Source of the DNA: Verrucomicrobiia bacterium
GTDB taxonomy: Bacteria > Verrucomicrobiota > Verrucomicrobiia > Limisphaerales > JAKPVM01
DNA length: 64,000 bases
Direction: 5' to 3'
Assembly: GCA_049968335.1 (NCBI GenBank)
Contig: JBMFQZ010000006.1
Location: 78,961 to 142,960 of the forward strand
Positions 7,895-45,834 of the stretch are shown here, piece by piece (positions within the stretch are counted from its first letter, which is position 1; every line of letters starts with the position of its first letter). The notes beneath the pieces were generated by a model that worked only from the letters and a program-made list of their open reading frames with translations, searched no databases and was not told where the DNA came from. The translations under genes and the position numbers were made by a program.

Positions 7895-10800
7895 ATGGCA
7901 AACCGAAAGTTATATCCTTTTGATGTAATTGAGAAAAAATGGCATAAAATCTGGGAAGAAGAACAGCCGTTTCGCGCGTGGAACCCGGGCGAGCGGATTC
8001 CCGAACAACATCCGTTCGGGAAAAGACACAATCTTGCGGGAAAGGTTGTAAGCCAGCAGGATTTGCCGCCAAAGTTTTATGTGCTTGATATGTTTCCCTA
8101 TCCAAGCGGCGCTGGTCTTCACGTTGGACATCCCGAGGGTTACACCGCAACGGATATAATCGCAAGATATAAACGCGCCCGCGGTTTTCACGTATTGCAT
8201 CCGATGGGGTGGGATGCCTTCGGTTTGCCCGCTGAACAATACGCTATCAAAACAGGACAGCATCCAAGGATAACAACCGAAAAAAATATCGCAAACTTCC
8301 GCAGACAGATAAAAGCGCTCGGTTTTAGTTACGACTGGTCTCGCGAGATTGATACCACCGACCCGAAATATTACAAATGGACTCAATGGATATTTTTGCA
8401 GTTGTATAACTCCTGGTTCAATCCTGAAACCAATAAAGCCGAACCGATATCAACCTTAAAATATCCGCCGGAATTAAAAACCGAAGAAGAACGGCGAGCC
8501 TACCGCGATAGCAAGCGGCTTGCGTATGTGGCGGAGATGCCCGTCTGGTGGTGCGAGGAATTGGGGACAGTGCTTGCAAACGAAGAGGTCATTGATGGCA
8601 AGAGCGAGGTTGGCGGTTTTCCAGTTGTTCGCAAGCCGATGAGACAATGGATGTTGCGAATAACCGCGTATGCCGAGAGATTATTGAAAGACCTTGATAC
8701 AATTGAATGGAGCGAATCGCTCAAAGAGATGCAGCGGAACTGGATCGGCAGGAGCGAAGGGGCAGAAGTTGTATTTGAAGTAGTTGATGACGGCGCGTTG
8801 AAACTTTCATCTGAAGAGCGAAAAATCACGGTATTTACAACCAGACCGGACACATTGTTTGGCGCGACCTATATGGTTCTGGCGCCTGAACATAAACTGG
8901 TTGATAAAATCATCCCTCCCCACTGGCCTGAAGGGACGCCAGAACTATGGAAAGGGGCTGACCCGGCATCAACATCAACCCCGGCGCAGGCTGTCAGGGC
9001 ATATAAGGCTTACGCGGCGTCAAAAAGCGACCTTGAAAGAACAGAACTTTCAAAAGAAAAAACAGGCGTCTTTACCGGTTCCTACGCGATAAATCCTGTC
9101 AATGGCGAAAAAATCCCCATCTGGATTGCCGATTATGTTCTTGCCACTTACGGGACAGGCGCAATTATGGCGGTACCAGCGCACGACACACGCGACCTTG
9201 AATTTGCAAAAAAATTCAACCTTCCTATTCGTGTGGTTGTGCAACCAGCGGATAGTAAAGTTGACCCGATAGGATTTGTTGACGACGGCATCAGCGTCAA
9301 TTCTGGCTTGATAAGCGGTCTGCCGACACCGCAGGCAAAACAAAAAATCATTCAATGGCTTGAACAACAGGGCAAAGGAAAGAAAACTATCAATTACAAA
9401 CTCCGCGACTGGCTATTTAGCAGACAACGTTACTGGGGCGAACCGTTCCCGATAATCTGGAAAGACGGCAAACACGAGCCGCTACCGGAGAGTGAATTGC
9501 CGCTTGTTCCGCCGCCGCTTGACGATTATAAACCGACGCCGAATGGAGACCCGCCGCTTGCGCGCGCAAAAGATTGGGTTAATCTGCCGGATGGTTCAAA
9601 ACGGGAGACAAATACTATGCCGCAATGGGCGGGAAGTTGCTGGTATTATTTGAGATATCTTGATGCCAGTAACGACAAACAATTTTGCAGCCCGCAATCC
9701 GAGCAATACTGGATGGACGGGGCAAATTGTCAGGGCAAGGGAAAGGTTTGTCCGGGCGTTGACCTGTATGTTGGCGGCACAGAACACGCAGTTCTGCACC
9801 TGCTTTACGCCCGATTCTGGCATAAAGTCCTTTATGACCTTGGCTTCGTCTCTACGCCGGAGCCGTTTTATAAACTTGTCAACCAGGGACTAATTCTTGG
9901 CGAAACCGAATACACGCTCTTCACCTATCCGGACGGCTCTTATTGCAGCGCGTCGGAATTGCGCGATATATCCGAAGAGGCTACCCCGCGCGGTCCGGTT
10001 ATGATCGGATATCATAAGGTTACCGGCGAGAAACTTTACGGTAAAAAAATCAGCGAAGACCATGTGGAAAAGTCCGCAGACGGTTTTGTTTTAAAAACAG
10101 ATAAATCGATAAAGGTTGACGCGCGCAGTTTTAAGATGAGCAAGAGCCGCGGCAACGTTATAAACCCCGACACTGTTCTTGCCGAGTATGGCGCCGACGC
10201 GTTCCGTTTATATGAAATGTTTATGGGACCGCTCGAAATGGTTAAACCGTGGAGCACCCGCGGCGTGGAAGGCGTTTATAGGTTCTTAGGTCGCGTCTGG
10301 AGATTGTTCATTGATGAAAAAAGTTATATTGAGTTTGAACAATCTCTAACAGCGAATCCGGATAAAGCCGAAGAGTTGCTAAAAAACTTGAAACTCTCTG
10401 ATTCTATTAAAAACATTGAACCTGACCAGCAACAACTGAAAGTCCTGCACACCTGCATTAAAAAGGTAACCGAAGATTTAGAAGGTATGCGGTTCAACAC
10501 AGCCATCTCGGCGCTGATGGTATTTATTAACGAGGCAAGCGCTTGGGAGGTTAAACCGGTCTCGGTGTTGCGCGATTTCTTAATCTTGCTCCAGCCGTTT
10601 GCCCCGCATATCGCGGAAGAATTGTGGGATAAATTGCTATCTCAAGCGGGAATGAAACCGGCTATTGAAGCCGTTGCCCTTTGTTATCAACCCTGGCTTG
10701 ATTACGACCCGCAGATGCTTGTGGAAAACACAATGGAAATCCCGGTTCAGGTCAACGGCAAACTGCGCGATGTAATCAAAATTGACGCAAACGCCTCACA

Positions 10801-19324: not shown

Positions 19325-20590
19325 CTAACTTTTTTGAAGTATCACTATGAATTCAGAATCCATTGTAGTATCGGTAATTCCAGGGAGATTTGTGGGGCTG
19401 TTCTTTTTCGGCATTCGTTTGTTCGGAATCGTTCTCATTATGGTTTTTATGTGGTTGAATCCGCATCGTTCAAAGAATTCCCGCGTAATTTCATCGTTTA
19501 AAATTTGCACTCCTTTTACTTTTCTATTTCCGACGACATAAGACACTATACCATTTCTTTTTACGAGTTTTGAAACGTTTTTGATGGACTTTTCATAGTC
19601 TAAATAAAATGACAGGACATCAAACGCTCTTTTATTATCTTTTTGGGCTATGGCGTTTAGAGCGTTGTCAAGAGGTTCGCAGTTAAATATTTTAAATTCC
19701 TTTGACGGTTGCCCTCCCATAGCCCTTTTATCAACTTCATTCATTTGTTCAAATCCAAGCCACTGGTTTGCGAGCCGCGAAAATTGTCCATAAGCAACCG
19801 TTGTCCTTGAATCTCCGTAAGGCGGCGAGGTTACAACTATCTCCACACTTTCTGGCGGCAGAAGATTTTCTGGGATACCAAAAACGGTATTAAAATTGCA
19901 TATTATAGAGTAGGATTTATTTTTTTTAATTGAGATATATTCCGCCAATCCATTTCTATTTCGCAATAACTTTTGAAGGATAGTTCCGAAGACATCCGGT
20001 TTAAATTTTTCAATCTGCTTTTGGCTCATTCTATATAACTTAAATTCGCTATTTTTTGTAAGGGAGACATCCCGGACGGTTTCGCTAAAGGCGACTTTAA
20101 AGAAATCCTGAATATCTTGGTTTTCAATCGCATCAATATAACCCTTAATAATTGCCAAAAATATTTGAGTATCTTTTTTAAACCAATAATCAATGTTCTT
20201 AAAATTTGGGATATGCGGAATAGTTTTTAATGCACCGAGTTCAGCAGAAAAGACGAAGTTATTAAAATCCTTTAAATAATCATCAAGGAGATTTAAAGGA
20301 ATAATAGTTGTTTTAACTTTGGCGATTAATCTGGCTAATGGGTTTATGTCGGTGCCAATTGCGTTTATTCCGCGCAAATTTGCTTCTACTAACGAAGTGC
20401 CTGTTCCGCAATATGGGTCAAACAGCAACTTAGACCCAGAGCCATATTCATCTAATATTTTCCCGGCAACTTGGGGAATCATCATTGCGGGGTATTGATG
20501 GAAACAATGAACATACTGTTTCGTGTTCGCTGTGCGGAAATCCCACGATTCGTCACGGTATTTAACTGGTTTGGTTAAAGTTAAATCCAT
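19325..20590 (-). CDS. Type II DNA methyltransferase, probably N4-cytosine (SPPY)
   Basis: Motif I is LLFDPYCGTGTSLVEA and motif IV is VVTSPPYGD. The ATG at 20590 lies 1 nt after the stop of the upstream endonuclease gene. Confidence 0.85.
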   Translation of the reverse strand: MDLTLTKPVKYRDESWDFRTANTKQYVHCFHQYPAMMIPQVAGKILDEYGSGSKLLFDPYCGTGTSLVEANLRGINAIGTDINPLARLIAKVKTTIIPLNLLDDYLKDFNNFVFSAELGALKTIPHIPNFKNIDYWFKKDTQIFLAIIKGYIDAIENQDIQDFFKVAFSETVRDVSLTKNSEFKLYRMSQKQIEKFKPDVFGTILQKLLRNRNGLAEYISIKKNKSYSIICNFNTVFGIPENLLPPESVEIVVTSPPYGDSRTTVAYGQFSRLANQWLGFEQMNEVDKRAMGGQPSKEFKIFNCEPLDNALNAIAQKDNKRAFDVLSFYLDYEKSIKNVSKLVKRNGIVSYVVGNRKVKGVQILNDEITREFFERCGFNHIKTIMRTIPNKRMPKKNSPTNLPGITDTTMDSEFIVILQKS

Positions 20591-34511: not shown

Positions 34512-34677
34512 AGCCTTTAATGCTTTAAAATTAAGCAATAAATACGTACCTGCTGCAAATATGTATTATATATTTAATTTCATCAAAATTCATTCGTCTT
34601 TGTTGACCTGGATTCAGATAAGAAACGGGAATTTATGGATTGAATAAAACATCGCTCTTGTGCAATCTAACGATTGT

Positions 34678-37600
34678 ATGAACATATTCAAAATGAACGG
34701 CAAATTTGCGAAGGTTGTCAATATTGTTGTCTTAAATGCTTTTATTTTTTCTGCATTTTCTGCAATTTCGCAGGAGATAAATAACGGGCTGGTGACAGTC
34801 CGCGCTGTAAAGAAGGGGAATTCATTTTCTGGTTTTGATGTATTAAAAGGGAGCACGAATATAGCGATTATAAGGTTTAGTTCGGAGACGGTTGGTTTGA
34901 CTGTCACAAAATGCAGCACAGTACGGGGTGGAGATGCGATTGAATTTTCAGGCTTTCAGGCGCGCAGCGGAGCAGGTGTTGTATTTGGAAAAGAGGATTT
35001 TGTCCGCGTCAGGCTTATTCGCAACGATCCTTATCCGGAGATAGCGTTTGGCATAACTATAGCGGAGTTTGACAGCGCGAAGTGGCAAACGGTGGTGGGG
35101 AAAGAGCCGTTTCATTTTCTTGCGTTATATTTGAAGGATGCCGAAACGTGGCATCATCGCGGCTGGTTAAACGCAACGCCGCTTGTTGATCCATTTCCAT
35201 TATTGCTTGACCGTCATGCCGGCACGCCAGAAATCTCCGCCTATCATTATAACAGGAACTGGAGTTACACAGTGCCGCTTGGGGCTCATCCGATACCGGT
35301 AATTGGTCTGTGGTCTGCAAGCAAGGCGCATTACGTTGGATATGAATTTCAAACAACCCGTCTTGAAAATAATTCTGAGCGCGACATTGCGACCGGGTAT
35401 CGCTGGATTGGCGATGAGAGCGGAAGTCCTGATTCAAAACAGTTTGTTGCGCTTGTTTATCCCTATGGCGGACAGGGGTATCAACAACTTGTTCTTCCGG
35501 AAACTGGGTCGCGATTAAATTCAAAATGCCGCCTGTTATGGAGTTTAAACCTGCCATCAACTGATGATCCGAATCGTTTTACGTTATCGGTTATCTGGGG
35601 CAAAACGATGGATAAACTGCCGCGGGTTCCGGCGGTGGCGGATGTTGACTGGATACCGGGAGGGATTCGGTTAAAGGATTTTCAAGGTCCGCCGCGCGGC
35701 GGTTTAATTGCCGGTGTTGAGCCGCCGTTTCAGGTTCAGGGAACGAGGTTGATTTCAGGCTGGACCTGGCATAATGAAAGCCCGACTGCCGCCGCAGCAA
35801 AGCAAAAAGATTCACAGAGAATCGCGGCTCTTAAAAACATTGCGTCGGAATTGATGAAATACGCAAAGAGGTTTCAGATCAATGGAGAGGAGTGTCTGTT
35901 CTGGGAAAAACCGCTTGAAGGAGAGTGGACTGAACAATGGGGCGGAAAACCTGTAACGACATTGCACAACGCAAACGGTTTTGCCGCCGCAAGGGTTTTT
36001 CTTGGTTTATACCGGGACGCGGGGATGAAGGAGTATTTGCCTGTAGTTGATGGGGTGTTGAACTGGGCAAAATATATTGAATGGACGCGAAACGAGTTTG
36101 CCGATGTCCCTTCTTCGCCATTTGCGATTGGCGGCACGTTGAGCGCCTCGTTTTGTCTGGAATATTATAAAACATTTAAAGATAGTCCCGACGATGAGCA
36201 TCGCAAACGGGCAAGTCTGGCGCTGGAACTTGCGCGCGTCTTTACCTATAGATATCTGGCAATCTGGCTTTCGGACAACAACCGGTTTGACAATCTTGAT
36301 TCTTCGTTTTTATGGGAGCCGAACAGCGGTAGAGACTGGACTGGTGCTGCCTGCGCAAACGAGGTCTTCTGGAATCTGGACACGCTTGCCCAAACGGCTG
36401 TCCATACCGGCGACCCTATCTTGATGTGGGCGCTGCAGGGCTCGTTAGATAGATGGCATCAACTTTATCAGGATGTTGTTAAAAATAGTCTTTTAGAGTA
36501 TCAAGCGCGAGATATGACAGAGGGTTACGGACTTTATGCCGGGAATGTTTACGGGGTTGGAAAACGCGCGCCATACGGATTTGCTTCGCCGCTTGTGATG
36601 ACCGAGCCGGTTGGCGATTCTTTTATCCGTGTCCTTGCAGGTGAAAAAGCGGCGCTTGCGTTTAAAAAAGGAAAACAGCAGGTCAACATCTCGCAATACA
36701 AATATAAACAGGAGGGGAACTTTGCCTTTACGGTTCAATCTGAACGCGGGGTGTTTGACCTATCTTTGACATCGCCTTATTGCGATATTAGCGAAAAATC
36801 TGTCAGCATTGCGCGCGAGGGGAAAAAGATTGTTTTGCAGCCGGGCTCTGATTTTATAAGACCGCCGCAAGCGTTATGGTCTTTGTATTTAAAGAACGTA
36901 AGAAATGGCGACAGAATTATAGTTGGTGAACCGGATGAGACGGCGCCGTCATTGCCAACAGAACCGCCGCTTGCCTATTCAAGCGCTCAAAAACAACCGT
37001 TGTCTAATTATGAAACCGTAAATGGTTTTGGACTGGTTCAACTTCCTTATGACAGCGCTCCTGATTTTAGCTGGGAGAATCCGCAGGGCTGGGCTGGAAT
37101 GCCGCGCGGCAGAATCTGGGTCTTTGGAGTGCCATTTAATATTGAATATTCAAATGACCGTTGTGTGTTGAGCCGTCCCGCGAAGCTGTCGCGTCAGATT
37201 AAGAATGCCGATTTTGTTTATCTATTATACAGCGAGGGCGAAGGCGAGGTTCCGTCGTTGGTTTATTCTGATGGCGCAAAGGAACTGGTTGACACTTCAA
37301 GCGAGGCAATTGCATTCAAGGCTCACCCGCCGATTTTTAAAGGCAGACTGTTTATCGGGAAGGTCGCGGTTAAAAAAGGCAAGTCAATCCAGTCTATTGA
37401 TCCGGCTAAGCGAATGGTCTGGGCTATGACGGTTCAAACATTATCCGACATACCGGCGGAAGATGCGGCACGAGTTAACCTTGCTTTAACCAAAGCGGCT
37501 GAAGAATGGAAAATCCAGAGGGCGCAGGAGTTGATTATGAGCGAACTTTCTGAAAAGGTTAAAACCGTGTCAGAAGGTAAAATAGCGATTCTTCCGCCAA

Positions 37601-38256
37601 GTCCGGGCGGCGCCGCATTTACATTTTTGCAGAAGATTGGTCTGGTTGAGAAGTCTATGGTTCTGAACAACCAGAGGCTTATTGACGGTTCAGTTTTCAA
37701 TCCGCAAAAGGTTTCTGCGGCAGTCTATCTTGATGGCGAGGATTATGTTCATACGGTTAGAAATACCGCCGATGGGGCGAACGCCGTTGAACAATTTGTT
37801 AAAGGAGGCGGCACGCTTGTTCTGCTTGCCTCGCAGCCATGGCCGATGTTTTACGCCACAGGCGGCGGCGGCAGGCGGAGCGAGGCGCTCACCGGGAAAC
37901 TTGGACTGTCGTTGTCTATGGCAGTTGAAGGTTTGCCATCAGAAAAATTGACAATCAAGATTAATACCCAGCAAAATATTATCAGATGCAAAAACGCGCA
38001 ATTCGGGTATCCAGAGGGGGACGGGAGGTTGCGGGCGATTTTAAGAAACCGAATACCAAAGGAGGCAAAATATACTCCGATTGCAACGGTGGTTGGAGAG
38101 TCGGGCAAGGATTACGGCGATGCCGCAGGTTTAATTGAATTTCCTAACGGTGGCAGGGTTCTATATATTGCCAGCGTGTTGCAACTTGACCCGATTAACG
38201 GTTTTGAAATTCGCCGCAGCGTAGCGGAATATTTGATAAAACTGAGCGGTAAATAA
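34678..38256 (+). CDS. Large secreted hypothetical protein (~1190 aa)
   Basis: This is an uninterrupted ORF with a signal peptide (MNGKFAKVVNIVVLNAFIFSAFSAISQE). Its last 76 codons are duplicated at 45835-46064. Confidence 0.75.
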   Translation: MNIFKMNGKFAKVVNIVVLNAFIFSAFSAISQEINNGLVTVRAVKKGNSFSGFDVLKGSTNIAIIRFSSETVGLTVTKCSTVRGGDAIEFSGFQARSGAGVVFGKEDFVRVRLIRNDPYPEIAFGITIAEFDSAKWQTVVGKEPFHFLALYLKDAETWHHRGWLNATPLVDPFPLLLDRHAGTPEISAYHYNRNWSYTVPLGAHPIPVIGLWSASKAHYVGYEFQTTRLENNSERDIATGYRWIGDESGSPDSKQFVALVYPYGGQGYQQLVLPETGSRLNSKCRLLWSLNLPSTDDPNRFTLSVIWGKTMDKLPRVPAVADVDWIPGGIRLKDFQGPPRGGLIAGVEPPFQVQGTRLISGWTWHNESPTAAAAKQKDSQRIAALKNIASELMKYAKRFQINGEECLFWEKPLEGEWTEQWGGKPVTTLHNANGFAAARVFLGLYRDAGMKEYLPVVDGVLNWAKYIEWTRNEFADVPSSPFAIGGTLSASFCLEYYKTFKDSPDDEHRKRASLALELARVFTYRYLAIWLSDNNRFDNLDSSFLWEPNSGRDWTGAACANEVFWNLDTLAQTAVHTGDPILMWALQGSLDRWHQLYQDVVKNSLLEYQARDMTEGYGLYAGNVYGVGKRAPYGFASPLVMTEPVGDSFIRVLAGEKAALAFKKGKQQVNISQYKYKQEGNFAFTVQSERGVFDLSLTSPYCDISEKSVSIAREGKKIVLQPGSDFIRPPQALWSLYLKNVRNGDRIIVGEPDETAPSLPTEPPLAYSSAQKQPLSNYETVNGFGLVQLPYDSAPDFSWENPQGWAGMPRGRIWVFGVPFNIEYSNDRCVLSRPAKLSRQIKNADFVYLLYSEGEGEVPSLVYSDGAKELVDTSSEAIAFKAHPPIFKGRLFIGKVAVKKGKSIQSIDPAKRMVWAMTVQTLSDIPAEDAARVNLALTKAAEEWKIQRAQELIMSELSEKVKTVSEGKIAILPPSPGGAAFTFLQKIGLVEKSMVLNNQRLIDGSVFNPQKVSAAVYLDGEDYVHTVRNTADGANAVEQFVKGGGTLVLLASQPWPMFYATGGGGRRSEALTGKLGLSLSMAVEGLPSEKLTIKINTQQNIIRCKNAQFGYPEGDGRLRAILRNRIPKEAKYTPIATVVGESGKDYGDAAGLIEFPNGGRVLYIASVLQLDPINGFEIRRSVAEYLIKLSGK

Positions 38257-39262: not shown

Positions 39263-40930
39263 CTAACTTGCCAAGGCCTTCAGTAAGGCGGACACCTTGC
39301 TTTTGAAGTCCTTGATCTTTTCGTCTGCGACCTTACCCTGTTGTACGGCCAAGAGAACCTCGGCTGCTTTGCGCCATCGTTCCCCACTGGTTTGAATTCC
39401 GAGAAAATCCTCCAAGTTGTTTGGCAGCTTGTAGACATCCTTTGTGCAATCGTTCTTGGCCTTCTGAATGAGATTGTTAAGCTTGTCCTGCTTTTCTTTT
39501 TCGCTACCGGTCTTGTTCGCATCCTTGTCATGCAAGACAGCATGATCAATTCGGAACTCGCCCAAAAGGTTCATGAAGCGGTGGATGTTGTATTTTCCGA
39601 GTGTTTCTAAAACAAACACCCCATTGGCGTTAGAAGAAAGTTGCCCGGTCTTGAGCAGGTAGTTGATCAACACCTGTTCCGAAAGCCCTTCAACGATGAG
39701 AACGGCGTTTGCGAAGAAGAGGCTGCTTCGTTCGGGATTCAGCCACAGAAAATGGCGCACTGCTTCCAGTTCCGCCGAACCCGCCTGCACGCCGAGAATT
39801 TCCGCGATTTGCTGGTTGTCCTCAAAGATTTCCTTCAAACGGACCTTTTTGATTTGGGCAACTTCGGTCTTGCCGGCTACTCGCCGCACACGAACCAAAT
39901 CCGCGAGGTCATCGGTGTTGTAGCTGACGAACTGGGGCGAGTGCGAAGCGGCAATGACCTGACGGCCCGGTTTAGCTGCGAGTTGGCGCAAACTGGTGTC
40001 GAGCACGTCTTGTTGCGGCGGATGCAGGAACGCCTCGGGCTCTTCAAACAGTAAAAGCTCCATTTCCGGCGAGAACTCCTTTTTCTCCGACTTGGGCTTT
40101 GACGCGGTGTAGCCCGCGGCGATCCGAATCAGCGTGAAGATCAGATGCCGCTGCAAGCCATGACCAAAGGCGTCAGGGCTCATCTCGGTATTCAAGGCGC
40201 TGTCGGTCAGGGTGTAGCGAATCAGGTTCTTGATGATGTCATCAACTTGTGGCGGATTGATGCCTAGATTAAAGGAGACGCCCCACTCTTTGATTTGATC
40301 AGTGATTTTCGCCTCGAGGTCCGAAAGCGAGCGTTTGTCAGGCGTCTCCTCGTTTTTTATGTTCCAGCTAAACTTAGCGAAGTCTTCGGTCAGGGCGGTA
40401 AAGGCGTTACTCGAAGTGATGACAGGCTTTAGGATGTCGTTAATTAGATCGCGCAGCGCGCTCGGCCCTGTCAGTTTGGTGTGCTCTTCCAATCGGCTGA
40501 CAGCCGGGATGTAAATCACATTGCCAAGTTTGCCCTGAGCCACGTTTTTCCAGCCGTAGAACAAATTCTGCGACAAGCTGCCATTTTCATAACCGAAAAA
40601 ACCGGCCTTCGCTTTATCGGACGGCCACAGCCACTTGCGAACGCGGCAACGGTTTTGGCCGATCAGGTATTCTTTTTTTATGTCTGCCGCCTCTTCTTGA
40701 GACAATTCGTATTCGAGTTCCACCCAGCTTTCCTGGTCATTGGTTTGGAACTTCGGGAAATCCCGGTCTTGGTCGAACTTCAGATCTTTCTCGTAAACGG
40801 TTCGTAGAGCATCGAGGACGTTGCTCTTGCCGGAATTGTTCGGCCCGATAAGCAGCGAATAGTCGCCGAAGCGGATTGTCTGCTCAGCAATCGAACGATA
40901 GTTGTGGATTTTCAGCTCTCTGATTTTCAT
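39263..40930 (-). CDS. OLD-family ATP-dependent nuclease (ABC-type ATPase + Toprim)
   Basis: It has MKIRELKIHNYRSI, Walker A GPNNSGKSN, Walker B LLLFEEPEAFLHP and ASHSP. Toprim follows with AVLIVEGLSEQVLI and LHDKD. A GGAG lies upstream of the ATG at 40930, 10 nt after the methyltransferase stop. Confidence 0.85.
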   Translation of the reverse strand: MKIRELKIHNYRSIAEQTIRFGDYSLLIGPNNSGKSNVLDALRTVYEKDLKFDQDRDFPKFQTNDQESWVELEYELSQEEAADIKKEYLIGQNRCRVRKWLWPSDKAKAGFFGYENGSLSQNLFYGWKNVAQGKLGNVIYIPAVSRLEEHTKLTGPSALRDLINDILKPVITSSNAFTALTEDFAKFSWNIKNEETPDKRSLSDLEAKITDQIKEWGVSFNLGINPPQVDDIIKNLIRYTLTDSALNTEMSPDAFGHGLQRHLIFTLIRIAAGYTASKPKSEKKEFSPEMELLLFEEPEAFLHPPQQDVLDTSLRQLAAKPGRQVIAASHSPQFVSYNTDDLADLVRVRRVAGKTEVAQIKKVRLKEIFEDNQQIAEILGVQAGSAELEAVRHFLWLNPERSSLFFANAVLIVEGLSEQVLINYLLKTGQLSSNANGVFVLETLGKYNIHRFMNLLGEFRIDHAVLHDKDANKTGSEKEKQDKLNNLIQKAKNDCTKDVYKLPNNLEDFLGIQTSGERWRKAAEVLLAVQQGKVADEKIKDFKSKVSALLKALAS

Positions 40931-40940
40931 GTTTTGCTCC

Positions 40941-41075
40941 TCACACGCTTTGGGCTTTTTCGAGGCGGGCGCGGACCAGCCCGACCACCGCCTCATACAC
41001 CGCCTCCCGCTCCCCGGCCGTCAAGCCCAACACATCAAACACCACTTCGTCCAAGGCGAAGCGGTCAGGTGATGC
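40941..41075 (-). repeat. Copy 1 (functional) of the triplicated methyltransferase 3' end
   Basis: It encodes ...FDVLGLTAGEREAVYEAVVGLVRARLEKAQSV* and is the reference for the fragments at 39082-39205 and 38361-38450. Confidence 0.9.
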
Positions 41076-44000
41076 TTGTCGCACTCGGTCTAAAGAAGCG
41101 GCAGAAGGGATGATATGTTCGTAGGGGTGGTTCACATGCGAACAGTGCAGCTCTTTGCACAGCGGAAATCCCAGCTCTTCAAAAACTGTGCGAACAACGC
41201 GCTTGGATAAAGCTTCAAACGCATCAATTAGGCGACTTATTGTTTGCAGGGTGAGATCGGTTGGGTCAATAACCGGGAATAGACCCACATCCGGGCCATT
41301 CACTGAAACTGCGCCAAGCCCCCAAGGCACGTTCCCGATGAGCTCATTCAATCCCGCCGCCACCGTTGAGTTGCAGAAAGCACCGATCACGGCCTTGTGT
41401 TCTTTTGTGTGGAAAATGATTTTATAGAACTTTTGCCCATAAACCCTGCCCAACACGATAGGAACAAAAAAACGAGCGCCTACCATTCGTGGGTATAGCA
41501 AATCACCGAGTTGGCGTGAGTTGCCGGTTGACTTAACTCCGAAGAACACCACGCCAGGGCTATTCTCTGTAAGGCGCATGGTCGAAAGCGAATCAATGCT
41601 GTCAACGAAAGGCACGGAGGGGAATCTCGGCCCGATATTGTTGCCGTGGATGTACCCCTCGATTCTCGCAAATAATCGCAAGGGTTTTAATTTTGGCAAC
41701 ACGTGCGTCATCAGGATGTCCGGAGCGCGCAGGTATTTGCCGCCCCATTTGTTGGCTTCGTAACGAGCGGTTTTGATGAACGGGGTGCGCGGTTTCTTGC
41801 CGGCCGACGCGGGTTCGTCGTCGTCTTCCTCGCGGGCGAGGCCTTCCTCGAACAGGTCGCGTTGGGGTCGGACGCAGATTCGCCAGCGGTCGGTGCTCTG
41901 GCGTTCGGCGGCGGACTCCAGCCTCTTGAAGGTGGCGGCGTCGAGCACGTCCTCGAACGGGACTTTGAACATAACAAAGCGGGCGGTCTGGTCGAGGCCG
42001 CTCTCGCGGCGGTCGTCGGGCGGTGCAAGCAGGGCGATGATCGTGTTGACATCAGCCTGGGCAAAGGAGCGTTTCCGTTCGTTGTCGAGGATGAACTTGA
42101 CGTGGCTGTGTTTGAGGAGGAACTCCTGCAGGTCTGCGCCGTAGCCGACATCGAGCCAGGAGTTGGAGGTGATGAAGCAGAAGCTTCCGCGCTCAGTCAG
42201 CAACGCCAGCCCGTGCAGGTAGAAGTAGATGTAGAGGTCGCTCTGACCGTCCAGTTTTCGATAATTGGCAGAGCTCGGCTTATACCGGAAAAACTTGGGC
42301 CACGCAGCAGCAACGGACTGAGCAAGTTTTGCTTTATAATCCGCCTTTTGTTCCTTCCATCGCGGGGCGTCTTCGCCGCCGTAGTCCTCAGGATTTTTGT
42401 CCGGCGGGGCGATCTTCTCTTTTCGGACATAGGGCGGGTTGCCGATGACGATGTCGAAGCCGGCCTTGTCGCCCTCGAAGATTTCCACAAAGGCGATGTC
42501 CCAGACGAACGGGACTTGTTGGGTGGTGCGCAGCGCCTGCAGGGCTTGTTCGATGCGGTTGAGTTCGGCTTGGCGCTCGGCGCGTTCGGCGCGCCATCCT
42601 TCTTCGAGGCGGAGACGTTCCTGTTTGGCCTGGCCGGGGGCGATGCCGGCCAGTTCGCCCTGTTCCACGCGCGATTCGATTTGATGGGTGAGCGCGGCGA
42701 TGGATTTCTGGAGGGCGAGGCGTTTGTGCGTGAGGATGTCGTGGAAGATGTCGAGTTCTTCCTTTTTGAGGTCGGCTTCGCGGAGGCCGGATTCGCCTTG
42801 GTAGAAGCGGAGTTTTTTGCCTTTGAGCTGGGTGAGTCGGCCTTTGAGTGAGGCAGGAATGTCGAGGTGGTCGCGGTGGAGACCGAGGTTGATGCCGCCG
42901 ATTTCCTGCACGAGGCTGTCGCCGCAGCGGACTTTGAAGGAGAGATTGGGCAGGAGCGGGCGAAATTTTAGTTCCGCAGCTTGGAGCTCGGTTTCTACGA
43001 CCAGTTGCAGCCAGAGGCGCAGTTCGGTGACGTGGATTGCCCAGTCCATCACGTCCACGCCGTAGAGTTGTTCGCCGATAATGCGGCGGCGGCGTTCGTA
43101 GGGGGTTTCTTCGAGGCCGAGTTGGGCGTTGGCGCGGGCTTGGAGGTCGTCGAGCACCAGCAACATGCCGACGAGGAACGAGCCGGAGCCGCAAGCGGGG
43201 TCGCAGACGGTGGTTTCGCGCAGGAGACGGTTGAGGTCGGGCCAGAGGTTTTGGGCAGCGAGCGCGCGGTCGGCGGCTTCTTTGTTGGCGGGGTCGTAAG
43301 CGAAGACGGCGTCGTAGAGCAGCGGTTTTTTGTCCTGGCCAAGCCGGTTGGCGAGGGTGTCGGTAAGGCTGAGGCGGCACATCAGGTCAATTTCGACGCG
43401 CGGGGTGTAGAAGATGCCGGCCGAGCCGCGCAGGTCGTCTTCGGTGAGTCCCTCGAAGGTGATGTTGACGAGGGATTCATAGACTTTGCCGATCATTTCG
43501 GGGTCAACGGCGACCTCGATGTCCAGCGGGGTAGATTCGGCGATGGTGAAGTTGTAGCGTTCGAGGAAGCCGGGGCTGCTTCCGTCAAAGGAATCGAAGA
43601 GGGTGGTAAAAAACTCGTCCGGCAGTTTCGCGTCGTAGGCGTCGTCGAGTTTGTTTTGGGTGAACAAGCCGCCGTTGAGAAACGGGGCTTGAGCGAGGGC
43701 GTGGCGGATGGGGTCGGGGAAATGGCGGTGTCCGCCGTGGAACTTGTTGTTGAACGCCTCGAAGAACAGGACGGAGAGCCAGCGGTCGAAAAAGGTGTCC
43801 TTGGGCTGGTCTGAGTTTTTGTAGGCGCGCCAGAATTCGGCGATGAAGTTCGGATTGTTGACGAGCCAGCGCTTGCGCTGGATGAAGTAAAGGAACATCA
43901 GGCGGTTGAGCAGTTGCAGGGCGTAATCGTGCGCCCAGATTTTGTCGCGGGAGGCATTGGTCAGGTGGGCTTGTAGGTTGGCAAAGACCTTCTTGTAGTC

Positions 44001-44537
44001 GTCGAAGAACCGTTTGGTGACTGCTTCGACATCGAAGGCTCGGTTGAGTTTGTCGGTTAGGGTGGTGATGAGTGGTTCGCCTTGTTCAAGTTCATCGAGG
44101 CTGAAGGCGAGTTCGCCCAGTCGCTCGATAGTGGTGCGGGCGGGAGAGCCGACCTCGTAGGGGAGGGTGCGGAGTTCGATCTTTTCGTCGGGCCGCTGAC
44201 GCGCCCAGGTGAAGGCGGCTTGTCGCTGGTCGGAGGTCACATAGCAGAGGAGATGTTCGGCATGGAGGGGTTTGAGGGCACGCTGAACCACGCGGCGGGC
44301 TGTGACACCGGGAAATTTCTTCTCTGGCCAATCTATGCGATATACCGGAAGACCCGAAAGTTGTGCCACCGGATGGAGGGTGAGGAGCCCGCTTACCGGC
44401 GTTCCGACTTCGAGAGTTCGCGACGTCATACCCCGCGGCGCACCCCAGTTGAGGGTCTGGCAGAAAAGCTCCCCCAGGTTTTCCGCCAAATTGCCGCCGG
44501 TCAATTGGGCTTCGATTTGTTGAAGAATCGTGTTCAT
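40941..44537 (-). CDS. Eco57I/PglX-like gamma-class N6-adenine DNA methyltransferase with a C-terminal specificity region (1198 aa)
   Basis: Motifs are GIFYTPR, motif I VCDPACGSGSFLVGML, LYGVDVMDWAIHVTELRLWL, motif IV FDIVIGNPPYVRKE and KWGGKYLRAPDI. The N-terminal region has LLNRLMFLYFIQRKRWL...FLNGGLF. I saw no clear PD-(D/E)xK motif. Confidence 0.85.
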   Translation of the reverse strand: MNTILQQIEAQLTGGNLAENLGELFCQTLNWGAPRGMTSRTLEVGTPVSGLLTLHPVAQLSGLPVYRIDWPEKKFPGVTARRVVQRALKPLHAEHLLCYVTSDQRQAAFTWARQRPDEKIELRTLPYEVGSPARTTIERLGELAFSLDELEQGEPLITTLTDKLNRAFDVEAVTKRFFDDYKKVFANLQAHLTNASRDKIWAHDYALQLLNRLMFLYFIQRKRWLVNNPNFIAEFWRAYKNSDQPKDTFFDRWLSVLFFEAFNNKFHGGHRHFPDPIRHALAQAPFLNGGLFTQNKLDDAYDAKLPDEFFTTLFDSFDGSSPGFLERYNFTIAESTPLDIEVAVDPEMIGKVYESLVNITFEGLTEDDLRGSAGIFYTPRVEIDLMCRLSLTDTLANRLGQDKKPLLYDAVFAYDPANKEAADRALAAQNLWPDLNRLLRETTVCDPACGSGSFLVGMLLVLDDLQARANAQLGLEETPYERRRRIIGEQLYGVDVMDWAIHVTELRLWLQLVVETELQAAELKFRPLLPNLSFKVRCGDSLVQEIGGINLGLHRDHLDIPASLKGRLTQLKGKKLRFYQGESGLREADLKKEELDIFHDILTHKRLALQKSIAALTHQIESRVEQGELAGIAPGQAKQERLRLEEGWRAERAERQAELNRIEQALQALRTTQQVPFVWDIAFVEIFEGDKAGFDIVIGNPPYVRKEKIAPPDKNPEDYGGEDAPRWKEQKADYKAKLAQSVAAAWPKFFRYKPSSANYRKLDGQSDLYIYFYLHGLALLTERGSFCFITSNSWLDVGYGADLQEFLLKHSHVKFILDNERKRSFAQADVNTIIALLAPPDDRRESGLDQTARFVMFKVPFEDVLDAATFKRLESAAERQSTDRWRICVRPQRDLFEEGLAREEDDDEPASAGKKPRTPFIKTARYEANKWGGKYLRAPDILMTHVLPKLKPLRLFARIEGYIHGNNIGPRFPSVPFVDSIDSLSTMRLTENSPGVVFFGVKSTGNSRQLGDLLYPRMVGARFFVPIVLGRVYGQKFYKIIFHTKEHKAVIGAFCNSTVAAGLNELIGNVPWGLGAVSVNGPDVGLFPVIDPTDLTLQTISRLIDAFEALSKRVVRTVFEELGFPLCKELHCSHVNHPYEHIIPSAASLDRVRQASPDRFALDEVVFDVLGLTAGEREAVYEAVVGLVRARLEKAQSV

Positions 44538-45271
44538 GGCCGTTCCTCAGTCATTGCTGTGGACGAAAAACTCGAAGATGCCGCCACTAATCCCATTGAG
44601 CAAATGATACGGGGTTCGGAGCGACTGGTATCGTCTTCGTCTGTCACTTCACAGAGGTTTTCATCTATTGCCCGGCGCAATACAAGTTCAAGCAGCGCTT
44701 CGTCGGTGATGCCCAGGCGCATCTGCCTGTTGACGGCATCTTGCGCGGCGCGCTTGAGCGGGTATCGCCAGATCAGGTTGAGCACAGAGTCGATCTGTTT
44801 CAAGGTTTCTGGGGTGAAGAGCGTGGGGTTAACCTGAAACCGCTCGCGGTAGCGTTTGAGACGATCGTAGAGTTTCCGGCGCATGCTTCGGAGCGAGCCT
44901 AGCTGGCCGCCTAAGGCAGTCTGCTCCTCGGTGGCAATTTCTACGCAACGGGCGACAAGGTTGTGATGGTTCTCTGCCCGCGGCAGCGGCGGGGTGTTCG
45001 GGGCGCACGCGGCGGCGCGGAAGATGGCGGATATAAACTTGGAAACCAGGTTACCCCGCTCATCCACTCGCACAAGCGCAACGGCGCCGTCTGGGTAGCG
45101 CAAGTAAGTAAGCACCACGGGCGGGTTGTTGACGTGCTCCTTGTCCCGATGATCGTAGGATTCGGTCGGGCGCTTATTCTGATTGGTTTGCGTTTTTCTC
45201 TTGCGTGCAGTCAATTCACACCACCCGCTCCTTGTTGGCGTAAACAAGTTCGTATTCCTTCTTGGCGTCAA
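44534..45271 (-). CDS. Hypothetical protein translationally coupled to the methyltransferase (start uncertain)
   Basis: The G+C-rich ORF stops in an ATGA overlap with the methyltransferase start (44534-44537). Its first ~19 codons overlap a 48-codon ORF in another frame. A TTG at 45214 sits 1 nt after that ORF's TGA. Confidence 0.55.
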   Translation of the reverse strand: MTPRRNTNLFTPTRSGWCELTARKRKTQTNQNKRPTESYDHRDKEHVNNPPVVLTYLRYPDGAVALVRVDERGNLVSKFISAIFRAAACAPNTPPLPRAENHHNLVARCVEIATEEQTALGGQLGSLRSMRRKLYDRLKRYRERFQVNPTLFTPETLKQIDSVLNLIWRYPLKRAAQDAVNRQMRLGITDEALLELVLRRAIDENLCEVTDEDDTSRSEPRIICSMGLVAASSSFSSTAMTEERP

Positions 45272-45362
45272 AGAGGATCACCTTGGAGTCCTCCGGTAAG
45301 GGCTTGCCTTCCCTGAGGAGACTTACAATACGTTCAATTTCTTGCTCTGAAAGTTTACGCAT
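45216..45362 (-). CDS. 48-aa ORF resembling the extreme N-terminus of Mod-type adenine methyltransferases (possible gene remnant)
   Basis: The hand translation is MRKLSEQEIERIVSLLREGKPLPEDSKVILFDAKKEYELVYANKERVV*. The LL..GK.LP......LF...KEYELVYAGKE leader is remembered from type III-like Mod proteins. It is absent from the supplied track because it is under 60 aa. Confidence 0.4.
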   Translation of the reverse strand: MRKLSEQEIERIVSLLREGKPLPEDSKVILFDAKKEYELVYANKERVV

Positions 45363-45402
45363 TTCAATTACCTCGCTTTTCCTTTCTTGCCTGTGTTCAT
45401 TC

Positions 45403-45519
45403 CTAATCCTGGATGATGGACACGATAGAGGCGTTCTGGGTCTGCTTCTGAATTTCCAGGGCTGTCTCCTTCAGGAAGAAATGCTGCTCCTCGGTAATCT
45501 CAGTGGTTGTCTTTCTCAT
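45403..45519 (-). CDS. Small (38 aa) ribbon-helix-helix-like protein, putative operon regulator
   Basis: The sequence is MRKTTTEITEEQHFFLKETALEIQKQTQNASIVSIIQD. A GGGAG lies 9 nt upstream of the ATG at 45519. It is the first ORF of the island operon, and the fold assignment is tentative. Confidence 0.35.
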   Translation of the reverse strand: MRKTTTEITEEQHFFLKETALEIQKQTQNASIVSIIQD

Positions 45520-45834
45520 AATCGTTTTACTCCCGGTTTTTAAAGCACGGTTTCTCGGTCTAACTATATCGTTATAATTTTGAATATAGCCACATAAAGT
45601 CAAGGTGAATTTTGCCGCCTCTCTCACCTTTTGTCGATACCCTTAATCTCGCCTATTAGTAGCGGGGCAATGTCTCTGTCTCCGTTCCTGCCAAGCGAAT
45701 TCTCCGGGCTGGGCGGCTCGGATCAAAGCCCTTATATCTACTTTGGAGGCGCAAGGACTTTTTATTTCTACGAGGAGACATTCTCCGTTTGCTTTCCGAT
45801 TATCTTCCGTAGTGGAACCACTTGAGTGGCGCAC

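Follow-up and report, generated by a model that had tools for sequence, protein, structure and literature searches.

Open reading frames upstream of the methyltransferase gene

We analyzed a window of 64,000 nucleotides (nt) of DNA from a Verrucomicrobiia bacterium, of which the region from 44534 to 45519 contains three minus-strand open reading frames (ORFs), here designated (a), (b), and (c), ahead of the gene for a large adenine methyltransferase in a presumed defence island. A previous reading of the letters and ORF translations, the sequence-only reading, had placed these ORFs in order on the minus strand, chained by stop/start overlaps, and had described the region as a mosaic. We found all three ORFs at the coordinates that it gave; the overlaps (TGA-A-TTG and ATGA) are visible in the sequence, and the pieces trace to different genes. 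On our reading, the segment from 44534 to 45603 probably consists of stacked recombination scars and now acts as promoter and leader for a methyltransferase operon left orphaned. Related loci and proteins from the databases are referred to by L and P numbers, respectively. The features of the locus are as follows.

45574-45603, minus strand: promoter-like site upstream of (a) (TTGACT, 18 nt, AATTAT), from a consensus scan, with a putative function
45530-45556, minus strand: conserved leader element GAGAAACCGTGCTTTAAAAACCGGGAG with a direct AAACCG repeat, ending in the GGGAG ribosome-binding site of (a)
45403-45519, minus strand: ORF (a), 38 amino acids (aa), a 3'-truncated copy, by comparison with homologues, of a 57- to 62-aa small gene that precedes Mod genes
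45216-45362, minus strand: ORF (b), 48 aa, matching a PF01555 Mod-type DNA methyltransferase over its first ~47 codons and ending in V-stop
45212-45218, minus strand: stop/start joint TGA-A-TTG from (b) to (c), with the TGA at 45218-45216 and the TTG at 45214-45212
44534-45271, minus strand: ORF (c), 245 aa as a mechanical ORF
45116-45214, minus strand: codons 1 to 33 of (c), matching the leader of a second, c'-type Mod family (MTARKRK..KRPxESYxHRDKxxVNNPPV)
45107-45130, minus strand: apparent recombination joint, in the NNPPVVLT codons, at which the c' leader passes into the helicase remnant, from DNA comparison of the parents
44534-45115, minus strand: body of (c), matching the last ~185 to 195 codons of an HKD(PLD)-SNF2 helicase-nuclease gene, a C-terminal domain of unknown fold
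44534-44537, minus strand: ATGA overlap of the (c) stop with the methyltransferase start
40941-44537, minus strand: Eco57I/MmeI-like N6-adenine methyltransferase, 1198 aa (Pfam Eco57I, 1e-29, and an NPPY motif)
39263-40996, minus strand: OLD-family ATPase-TOPRIM nuclease, immediately downstream (PADLOC Old, 1.9e-61; Pfam AAA_15 and OLD-like_TOPRIM)

The (b) peptide was exactly as quoted in the sequence-only reading, and (b) and (c) overlap by 56 nt (~19 codons). GenBank calls (c) from the TTG as a 226-aa hypothetical protein (P0001) and (b) as a 48-aa hypothetical protein (P0054), both on a 190,593-nt contig of a Verrucomicrobiia metagenome-assembled genome (MAG). The G+C content rises from 0.43 to 0.47 over (a) and (b) to 0.55 to 0.65 through (c) and most of the methyltransferase gene.

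ORF (b) reads as the severed start of a Mod methyltransferase, a fragment and not a methyltransferase in its own right. A scan with one genome per species identified nine loci that encode relatives of the 48-aa peptide. Residues 1 to 46 were 72 to 89% identical to L012-L017, and the same first 46 residues (72 to 85% identity) opened frames of 653 to 731 aa in L013, L015, L016, and L017. Full-length relatives run on past the end of the stub as "...EEDILADTMAVPLQ...DPPF," and these four frames continue "...KEREEDILADTMAVPLQPVKTF...GWTNMLIFGDNLQVLKTLL...DPPF"; L013, read from its ATG, matched PF01555 with an E value of 1e-39. The tblastn scores of (b) against the full-length Mod genes (E 2e-18 to 6e-23) were far beyond chance, and full-length Mods searched against the whole window matched only at 45362 to 45225 (E 2e-18 with the L013 Mod from its ATG). 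By tblastn, no further Mod similarity followed (b) in any frame of the window, and (b) itself, with its stop at codon 48, had no Pfam match and lacked the DPPF/DPPY catalytic motif and the S-adenosylmethionine-binding core of Mod. The distant Mods L018 and L019 retain the N-terminal pattern REGKPLPE...ELVW/Y-x-GK...PLQ/PFQ, and therefore the stub breaks off in the middle of a conserved N-terminal module. The suggestion that (b) is a Mod start that stops where full-length proteins continue was thus borne out. The AlphaFold2 (AF2) model of (b) is a two-helix hairpin with a predicted local distance difference test (pLDDT) score of 85.

The protein-database search with (b) returned short relatives only, which reflects how the tool chooses candidates for short queries and not biology: with queries of ~50 aa, the hits of the word-indexed search were all under ~95 aa in length, even though there are full-length relatives, and no biological meaning should be attached to length distributions obtained in this way. 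The possibility that homologues of (b) and of the c' leader form mini-protein families was rejected as an artefact of this tool, since the genome scan found full-length Mods. The b-type Mod of the Chitinophagales locus L010 (10160-10175) carries an in-frame TAA at the codon after KERE (GAG CGT GAG TAA GAC ATC...), the same position at which the stub breaks, and the rest of its Mod runs on in frame. P0057 has a microhomology-style in-frame deletion that joins the Mod N-terminal KERE to the Mod C-terminal VKTLEDFKGR, and L024 and L025 have two in-frame insertions within (b). Elsewhere in the window, positions 20210 to 20494 on the minus strand showed weak tblastn similarity (E 0.002 to 0.01) to the PF01555 catalytic region, where there is probably another, unrelated DNA methyltransferase gene.

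ORF (c) appears to be a chimera of two unrelated genes. Its codons 1 to 33, MTARKRKTQTNQNKRPTESYDHRDKEHVNNPPV, bear no relation to the helicase, whose N-terminus is MPTIYDNIESK..., and match the leader of the c'-type Mod family, which continues as ...KRPIESYEHRDKQRVNNPPVGLVTPETDPDAG..YAYDPHLDPQLVWAGKAEHTSF. This leader opens frames of 844 to 901 aa in L032-L034 and L036; L032, read from its ATG, matched PF01555, and several database sources name members of the family adenine-specific or site-specific DNA methyltransferases. The (c) leader matched c'-type Mods with E values of 2e-4 (L034) and 2e-5 (L032), with the pattern KRPxESYxHxxxxRxNNPPVGL present at the extreme N-terminus, and was 85% identical to the L004 stub. 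These matches agree with the earlier proposal that the motif KRPTESYDHRDKEHVNNPPV represents another N-terminal leader of a methyltransferase. After NNPPV, (c) switches to helicase sequence and has neither the c' continuation (...VTPETD...YxYDPHLDPQLVWAGK) nor a PF01555 core. Residues 1 to 30 of (c) were disordered in the AF2 model (pLDDT of ~53). An origin of the (c) N-terminus from that of the helicase itself by an internal in-frame deletion was rejected, since the helicase starts MPTIYDNIESKLLEG... and has no such motif.

Approximately 85% of (c) corresponds to the 3' end of the helicase-nuclease gene and not, as one of the two earlier readings had it, to a methyltransferase. The (c) body was 71% identical to residues 217 to 398 of the 407 residues in L039 (E 1e-94 pairwise, 1e-83 by tblastn), and it ends ...EPRIICSMGLV like the helicase C-terminal domain, its stop overlapping the methyltransferase start. 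As with (b), chance would not account for the similarities of the leader and body of (c). A protein search with (c) returned 53 relatives, several of them with Helicase_C and one named as an NgoFVII-family endonuclease fragment, while an exhaustive search of representatives gave 419 matches that started at residue ~45 to 53 of the 245-aa ORF and ended at the C-terminus of their targets. Complete relatives are 1,100 to 1,170 aa long and are matched at residues ~950 to 1135 (for example, residues 952 to 1135 of the 1140-aa P0201). In L001, L002/L003, and L039, they have an N-terminal PLD/NgoFVII-like nuclease and a SNF2 helicase and lie directly upstream of an Eco57I-like methyltransferase gene homologous to that of the window; a 4-nt ATGA overlap joins the two genes in L002/L003 and L039. 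The best named PADLOC match of these helicase-nucleases was the candidate "HKD+Snf2." In the window, tblastn with the N-terminal 690 to 730 aa of L002 and L039 and with Helicase_C detected neither the PLD/HKD nuclease nor the SNF2 ATPase of the helicase, and no other helicase, Mod, Res, or HNH fragments were found by tblastn. ORF (c) itself had no match in Pfam or PADLOC. The AF2 model placed residues 33 to 210 in a confident domain of β-hairpins and a helical bundle (pLDDT of 85 to 98), and a PDB fold search with the helicase C-terminal domain gave no match with E <0.2. By its own account, the sequence-only reading would fail if a full-length homologue of the 245-aa protein had a defined function and a start downstream of 45216. 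This applies in part only: full-length homologues of the (c) body do exist, at 1,100 to 1,170 aa and in a named class, but their genes would have begun upstream of the whole region and not downstream of 45216.

The point of fusion could be located in the DNA of both parents, which share the 10-nt microhomology AAYCCGCCNG, encoding NNPPVG in the c' parent and (H/N)NPPGV in the helicase. At the joint the c' parent reads AACAACCCGCCGGTGGGT and the helicase parent CACAATCCGCCGGGCGTT or CTCAACCCGCCCGGCGTC, and in the 419 database matches the helicase homology begins at residue 47 to 50 of the 245-aa ORF. The joint looks like the product of a microhomology-mediated illegitimate recombination that chanced to be in frame.

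The helicase gene often decays in related loci. The closest intact-looking copies (L001 7788-11206, L002 1058-4611, L039 493-3932, and L038 7302-10717) are all split by frameshifts, which arose independently in L001, L002, and L039. The acidic linker that precedes the second RecA lobe, just ahead of its VLIFTQFADT, is interrupted in each case but not at the same point; L038 is in three pieces. Single-ORF helicases of 1,100 to 1,170 aa exist. The splits mean either that the gene is inactivated again and again or that its linker is prone to indels. P0031 arose from this helicase by internal deletion. In L040-L043, a cassette with a NotI-like endonuclease and a D12-class methyltransferase replaces the middle of the gene (for example, L040 2649-9803), between a 245-aa PLD 5' remnant and a 174-aa 3' remnant, and fragmented Eco57I-like methyltransferase ORFs follow.

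ORF (a) has homologues of 57 to 62 aa, which immediately precede the intact b-type Mod of L015, the intact c'-type Mod of L032, and the stub patches of L004 and L024/L025. Compared with these, the window copy has lost 18 nt, shows CAG>TAG and TGG>TGA changes after the deletion, and thus lacks the last ~19 to 24 residues (38 of ~57 codons remain). Its GGGAG-to-ATG spacer is 10 nt and not 9 nt, as had been reported. The RHH-like (ribbon-helix-helix) character claimed for (a) was a pattern only, and no search lent it support: neither the window copy nor the 57- and 62-aa homologues matched RHH models in Pfam or NCBIfam, PHROGs was negative, an (a) profile found nothing relevant in the PDB, and hhalign against the RHH_1-positive gene of L033, which holds the equivalent position upstream of a c'-type Mod, gave a probability of 0.1%. 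The RHH assignment was thus not upheld; a role of (a) as a small DNA-binding regulator would be reasonable but is unproven. Upstream of (a), the block TTGAC(T/C)T...TATAT...AATTAT is alignable in the window, L004, L015, L024, and L029, with a -35 TTGACT, an A/T-rich -10, and the element GAGAAACCGTGCT-N-GAAACCGGGAG ending in the ribosome-binding site. The leader element is near-identical in L004 and L024 and recognizable in L015 and L029, its AAACCG repeat is conserved, and it may act as an operator.

Recurrence of the patch and possible selection on its parts

The joint between (b) and (c), read as ...KERE-V-stop, one base, TTG or GTG, and then the c' leader, was found in the window, in a Syntrophales locus present in at least six assemblies (L004-L009 and L021-L023), and in L024-L026 and L027-L029, with GTGTGA followed by A TTG or C GTG in these database copies. 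The metagenome scan for the exact joint recovered the Syntrophales lineage only, and the more diverged joints came from protein look-ups. Because the identical joint occurs in at least six independent Syntrophales-locus assemblies and in three further lineages, an indel error at 45200 to 45230 is very unlikely. The cargo downstream of the patch differs by lineage, as does the codon at which the c' leader breaks off.

Window: 33 c' leader codons kept, then the helicase remnant (with the Eco57I-like methyltransferase and OLD)
L004: 54 c' leader codons kept, then an HsdM fragment and a type I system with GmrSD
L024/L025: ~113 c' leader codons kept, with internal deletions, then HsdM
L027: ~116 c' leader codons kept, with a frameshift, then MmeI-like methyltransferase genes

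The stub-attached c' leaders have non-ATG starts and a KTQT(N/E)(Q/L)NKRP insertion in common, both of which are absent from ordinary c' Mods. This points to one old (b)/c' joint behind which the following genes would have been swapped repeatedly. Individual copies showed further changes: the Syntrophales copy L004 has a HicB antitoxin gene and a frameshifted HicA-like toxin gene inserted between (a) and (b) (9527-9970), the c' leader of L024/L025 has a 30-nt palindromic insertion (CCCCGTGAGATACAAAATTATCTCACGGGG), and L026 (460-693) has a microhomology-style in-frame deletion that joins LVWAGK straight to VQMIYIDPPYG. No annotated counterparts were found in plasmid and phage records, and no integrase, attachment site, or tRNA is present at the island of the window (a tRNA was looked for at its boundaries).

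Two other explanations of the break at KEREV-stop were rejected. A group II intron or mobile-element end, suggested by the resemblance of GTGTGA to GUGYG, is at odds with what follows the stop, namely, the beginning of another Mod gene with its start codon and leader, and an Rfam search at the break gave no match. A phase-variable repeat or programmed frameshift was dismissed as well, since there is no simple repeat and no Mod continuation in the downstream frames.

Selection on the fragments was compared by the Nei-Gojobori method, as the ratio of nonsynonymous (dN) to synonymous (dS) divergence.

(b) stubs of the window, L004, and L029: dS 0.68 to 0.86, dN 0.07 to 0.11, dN/dS 0.08 to 0.16
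c' leaders: dN/dS 0.21 to 0.38
(a): dN/dS 0.03 to 0.23

The dN/dS of the (b) stubs, over the 46 codons that the test covers, equals that among full-length Mods. In L029, (b) is intact while (a) is a pseudogene with four stops and a frameshift. The low ratio and the intact (b) beside a decayed (a) favour amino-acid-level constraint on the apparently severed 48-aa ORF. However, the stubs are 82 to 84% identical to one another at the nucleotide level versus 86 to 88% to full-length Mods, and therefore a recurrent origin or gene conversion from resident Mods could mimic constraint.

Proposed assembly of the locus and alternatives

The small ORFs are left-overs of four older genes: a shortened small regulator-like gene, two Mod starts, and the tail of a deleted nuclease-helicase. 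Read 5' to 3' on the minus strand, the stack would begin with the promoter of a Mod-type (type III-like) operon and its small upstream gene (a), which a deletion and a nonsense change have shortened. Next is (b), made up of the initial ~47 codons of the Mod gene in that operon and closed by a V-stop, followed one base on by a TTG start and the 33-codon leader of the second Mod family. This leader is fused in frame, at AAYCCGCCNG, to the last ~190 codons of the helicase-nuclease gene, and the stop of the fusion overlaps the methyltransferase start. The nuclease-helicase, the restriction partner of a two-gene system, would have been deleted and its 3' end kept, presumably because the coupled initiation site of the methyltransferase lies there and because restriction has to be lost before modification if the loss is not to be lethal. 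Transcription would now come from the captured Mod-operon promoter, with the OLD nuclease now downstream, and ribosomes would be handed down the chain from (a) through (b) and (c) to the methyltransferase via the stop/start overlaps. Most of the peptides would be by-products, with the possible exception of (b), which may be under amino-acid-level constraint.

The identity of the pieces, the positions of the joints, the order helicase then methyltransferase in relatives, and the lack of a helicase nuclease or ATPase part in the window were directly observed. The loss of the helicase-nuclease is further supported by the recurrence of the helicase-methyltransferase order and of ATGA among L001, L002/L003, and L039. 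Also in favor of the assembly are the microhomology where leader and helicase meet, the G+C step from 0.43 to 0.47 over (a) and (b) to 0.55 to 0.62 over (c), the promoter block and (a)-like genes found ahead of intact Mods of both the b type (L015) and the c' type (L032), the deletion and nonsense changes in the window copy of (a), and the repeated decay of this helicase in other loci. Thus, the locus appears to carry an orphan (solitary) methyltransferase whose cognate helicase-nuclease has been cut to its last ~190 codons. Several observations weigh against this assembly of scars. The (b) stubs with the shared joint differ mostly at synonymous sites, which is unlike a neutral scar, and the intact (b) of L029 beside its pseudogene (a) points the same way. 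The 190-codon helicase remnant has neither a stop nor a frameshift and has a confident AF2 fold; this may mean that a functional domain was retained, or only that the deletion is recent. The sequence just upstream of the joint, GGAGGTG, is a Shine-Dalgarno sequence in the other copies and reads GGTGGTG in the window, so that the E47V change weakens the site before (c). Finally, the promoter is a consensus match only.

The best-placed alternative, which overlaps in part with the assembly of scars and which we consider possible but not likely, is that (b) is a genuine selected mini-gene, exapted from the Mod N-terminus, whose 48-aa two-helix peptide would travel together with the promoter and (a) and act as a protein, for example, as a regulator or partner-binding decoy, and not just as a spacer that is translated. 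The low pairwise dN/dS among stubs with identical joints, the ORF length and stop position kept in at least four lineages, the survival of (b) in L029, and the confident helical hairpin are in its favor, whereas the test behind that ratio is short, the greater nucleotide identity of the stubs to full-length Mods than to one another leaves room for gene conversion or independent origin, and the stub breaks in the middle of the E-L-(V/I)-(Y/W)-x-G-K...PLQ motif of Mod N-termini. The break point also varies among stubs (as in P0073-P0080), and the window copy is altered at the otherwise conserved positions Y26S, T33A, and E47V. Of the two readings first offered for (b) and (c), a remnant now serving as leader held in spirit but not as a single frameshifted gene, and that of genuine coupled small genes may still apply to (b), given its dN/dS of ~0.1.

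A second alternative would make (c) a functional accessory subunit, in which the helicase C-terminal domain docks on the methyltransferase for stability or activity, as presumably happens when both genes of the system are intact, and would explain the repeated 3' remnants. Its undamaged 190 codons with a confident fold, the 3' remnants immediately before methyltransferase genes in L040-L043 (174 aa) and P0031, and the conserved ATGA coupling agree with such a role. We nevertheless regard it as unlikely: the chimeric N-terminus occurs in one sequence only of 5.8 billion clusters (P0001), the need to keep the translation-initiation region of the methyltransferase explains the retention equally well, and the PDB fold search found no structural or functional precedent for the domain. 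The reading of (b) and (c) as a single methyltransferase gene broken by a frameshift or assembly indel near 45200 to 45230, to which abutting ORFs that both start with methyltransferase-like leaders in a single MAG assembly might have pointed, is refuted by the joint shared among independent assemblies from several samples and lineages and by the lack of a Mod continuation in any downstream frame, and the two leaders are from different Mod subfamilies, the second being an N-terminus with its own start codon.

Several known systems resemble parts of the locus. The (a), promoter block, and (b) codons of the window correspond to the 5' end of type III-like mod-res operons (PF01555 Mod and ResIII helicase; for example, L015, L016, and L017), which in L015 run from an (a)-like gene through a 717-aa frame with the Mod start and an HNH protein to a ResIII helicase; in contrast to these operons, the window has nothing past Mod codon 47, no DPPF/DPPY region, and no Res gene. 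The intact relatives of the (c) body share an N-terminal PLD/NgoFVII-like nuclease, a SNF2 core, and extra C-terminal domains with the HKD(PLD)-Swi2/Snf2 effectors of methylation-based defence (PADLOC candidate "HKD+Snf2," C3a139) and, like them, are paired with an N6-adenine methyltransferase, whereas the window keeps the last ~190 codons only. Effectors of this kind paired with N6-methyltransferases have been described for Type-2 BREX-related systems (PMC12839542); unlike those systems, the (c) relatives are two-gene units with an Eco57I/PglX-like methyltransferase and lack a neighboring DUF499 ATPase or DUF3780.

Loss of the restriction gene first is an established non-lethal route to solitary methyltransferases. 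The window likewise has no restriction part and keeps the methyltransferase with its upstream coupling region; however, the loss here appears to go together with the acquisition of a promoter and leader of foreign origin and of an OLD-family nuclease downstream. As in cassette exchange at conserved defence-island flanks, one 5' patch of (a), (b), and c' leader precedes three cargos, namely, the helicase remnant, Eco57I-like methyltransferase, and OLD of the window, the type I HsdM/HsdS/GmrSD genes of L004 and L024, and the MmeI-like methyltransferase genes of L027. The joints of the window, on the other hand, look microhomology-mediated and illegitimate and not site-specific.

Scars of this type (restriction-gene loss, an orphaned methyltransferase, and a mosaic defence island) are ordinary in bacterial defence islands, and the unusual part is the recurrence of the same front-end patch in other phyla ahead of different defence genes. 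The residual novelty is this conserved patch, above all its apparently constrained 48-aa stub. We regard it as unlikely that the patch is a portable 5' platform for expression, made up of the promoter, (a), the stub, and the c' leader, and that it outlasts cargo swaps by microhomology-mediated recombination, with the stub as a selected functional helical mini-protein and not a decaying scar. If the stub is selected, a methyltransferase N-terminus would have been exapted as a small protein, and a conserved front-end module would be reused ahead of different immune cargos. The locus would offer a base-by-base record of the rebuilding of a defence operon, in which a restriction gene was lost, the methyltransferase kept, a foreign promoter and leader gained, and an OLD nuclease acquired. 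For annotation, this means that the GenBank hypothetical proteins of 226 and 48 aa represent gene fragments and that a complete restriction-modification or helicase-nuclease system should not be scored here.

The methyltransferase and its downstream neighbours

The window methyltransferase starts, as previously noted, in an ATGA overlap with (c) (44537-44534) and over its whole length shares ~55% identity with the L002 methyltransferase, the identity being much higher over the first ~950 residues. Past that point its C-terminal ~250 aa (40941-41700) are essentially unrelated to the L002 homologue, and the G+C content falls from ~0.6 to ~0.5 at about 41500 to 41700. The C-terminus thus looks like a swapped module, possibly for target recognition, and may mark another recombination joint. 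The likely start of the OLD nuclease is the methionine of MKIRELK at about 40930, and the 201-aa ORF that follows this gene had no family match. The methyltransferase ORF (40941-44537, minus strand) and an ORF at 34660 to 38256 on the plus strand, which encodes a secreted-looking protein, are both exactly 1198 aa long; the two are unrelated, and the equal length is a coincidence.

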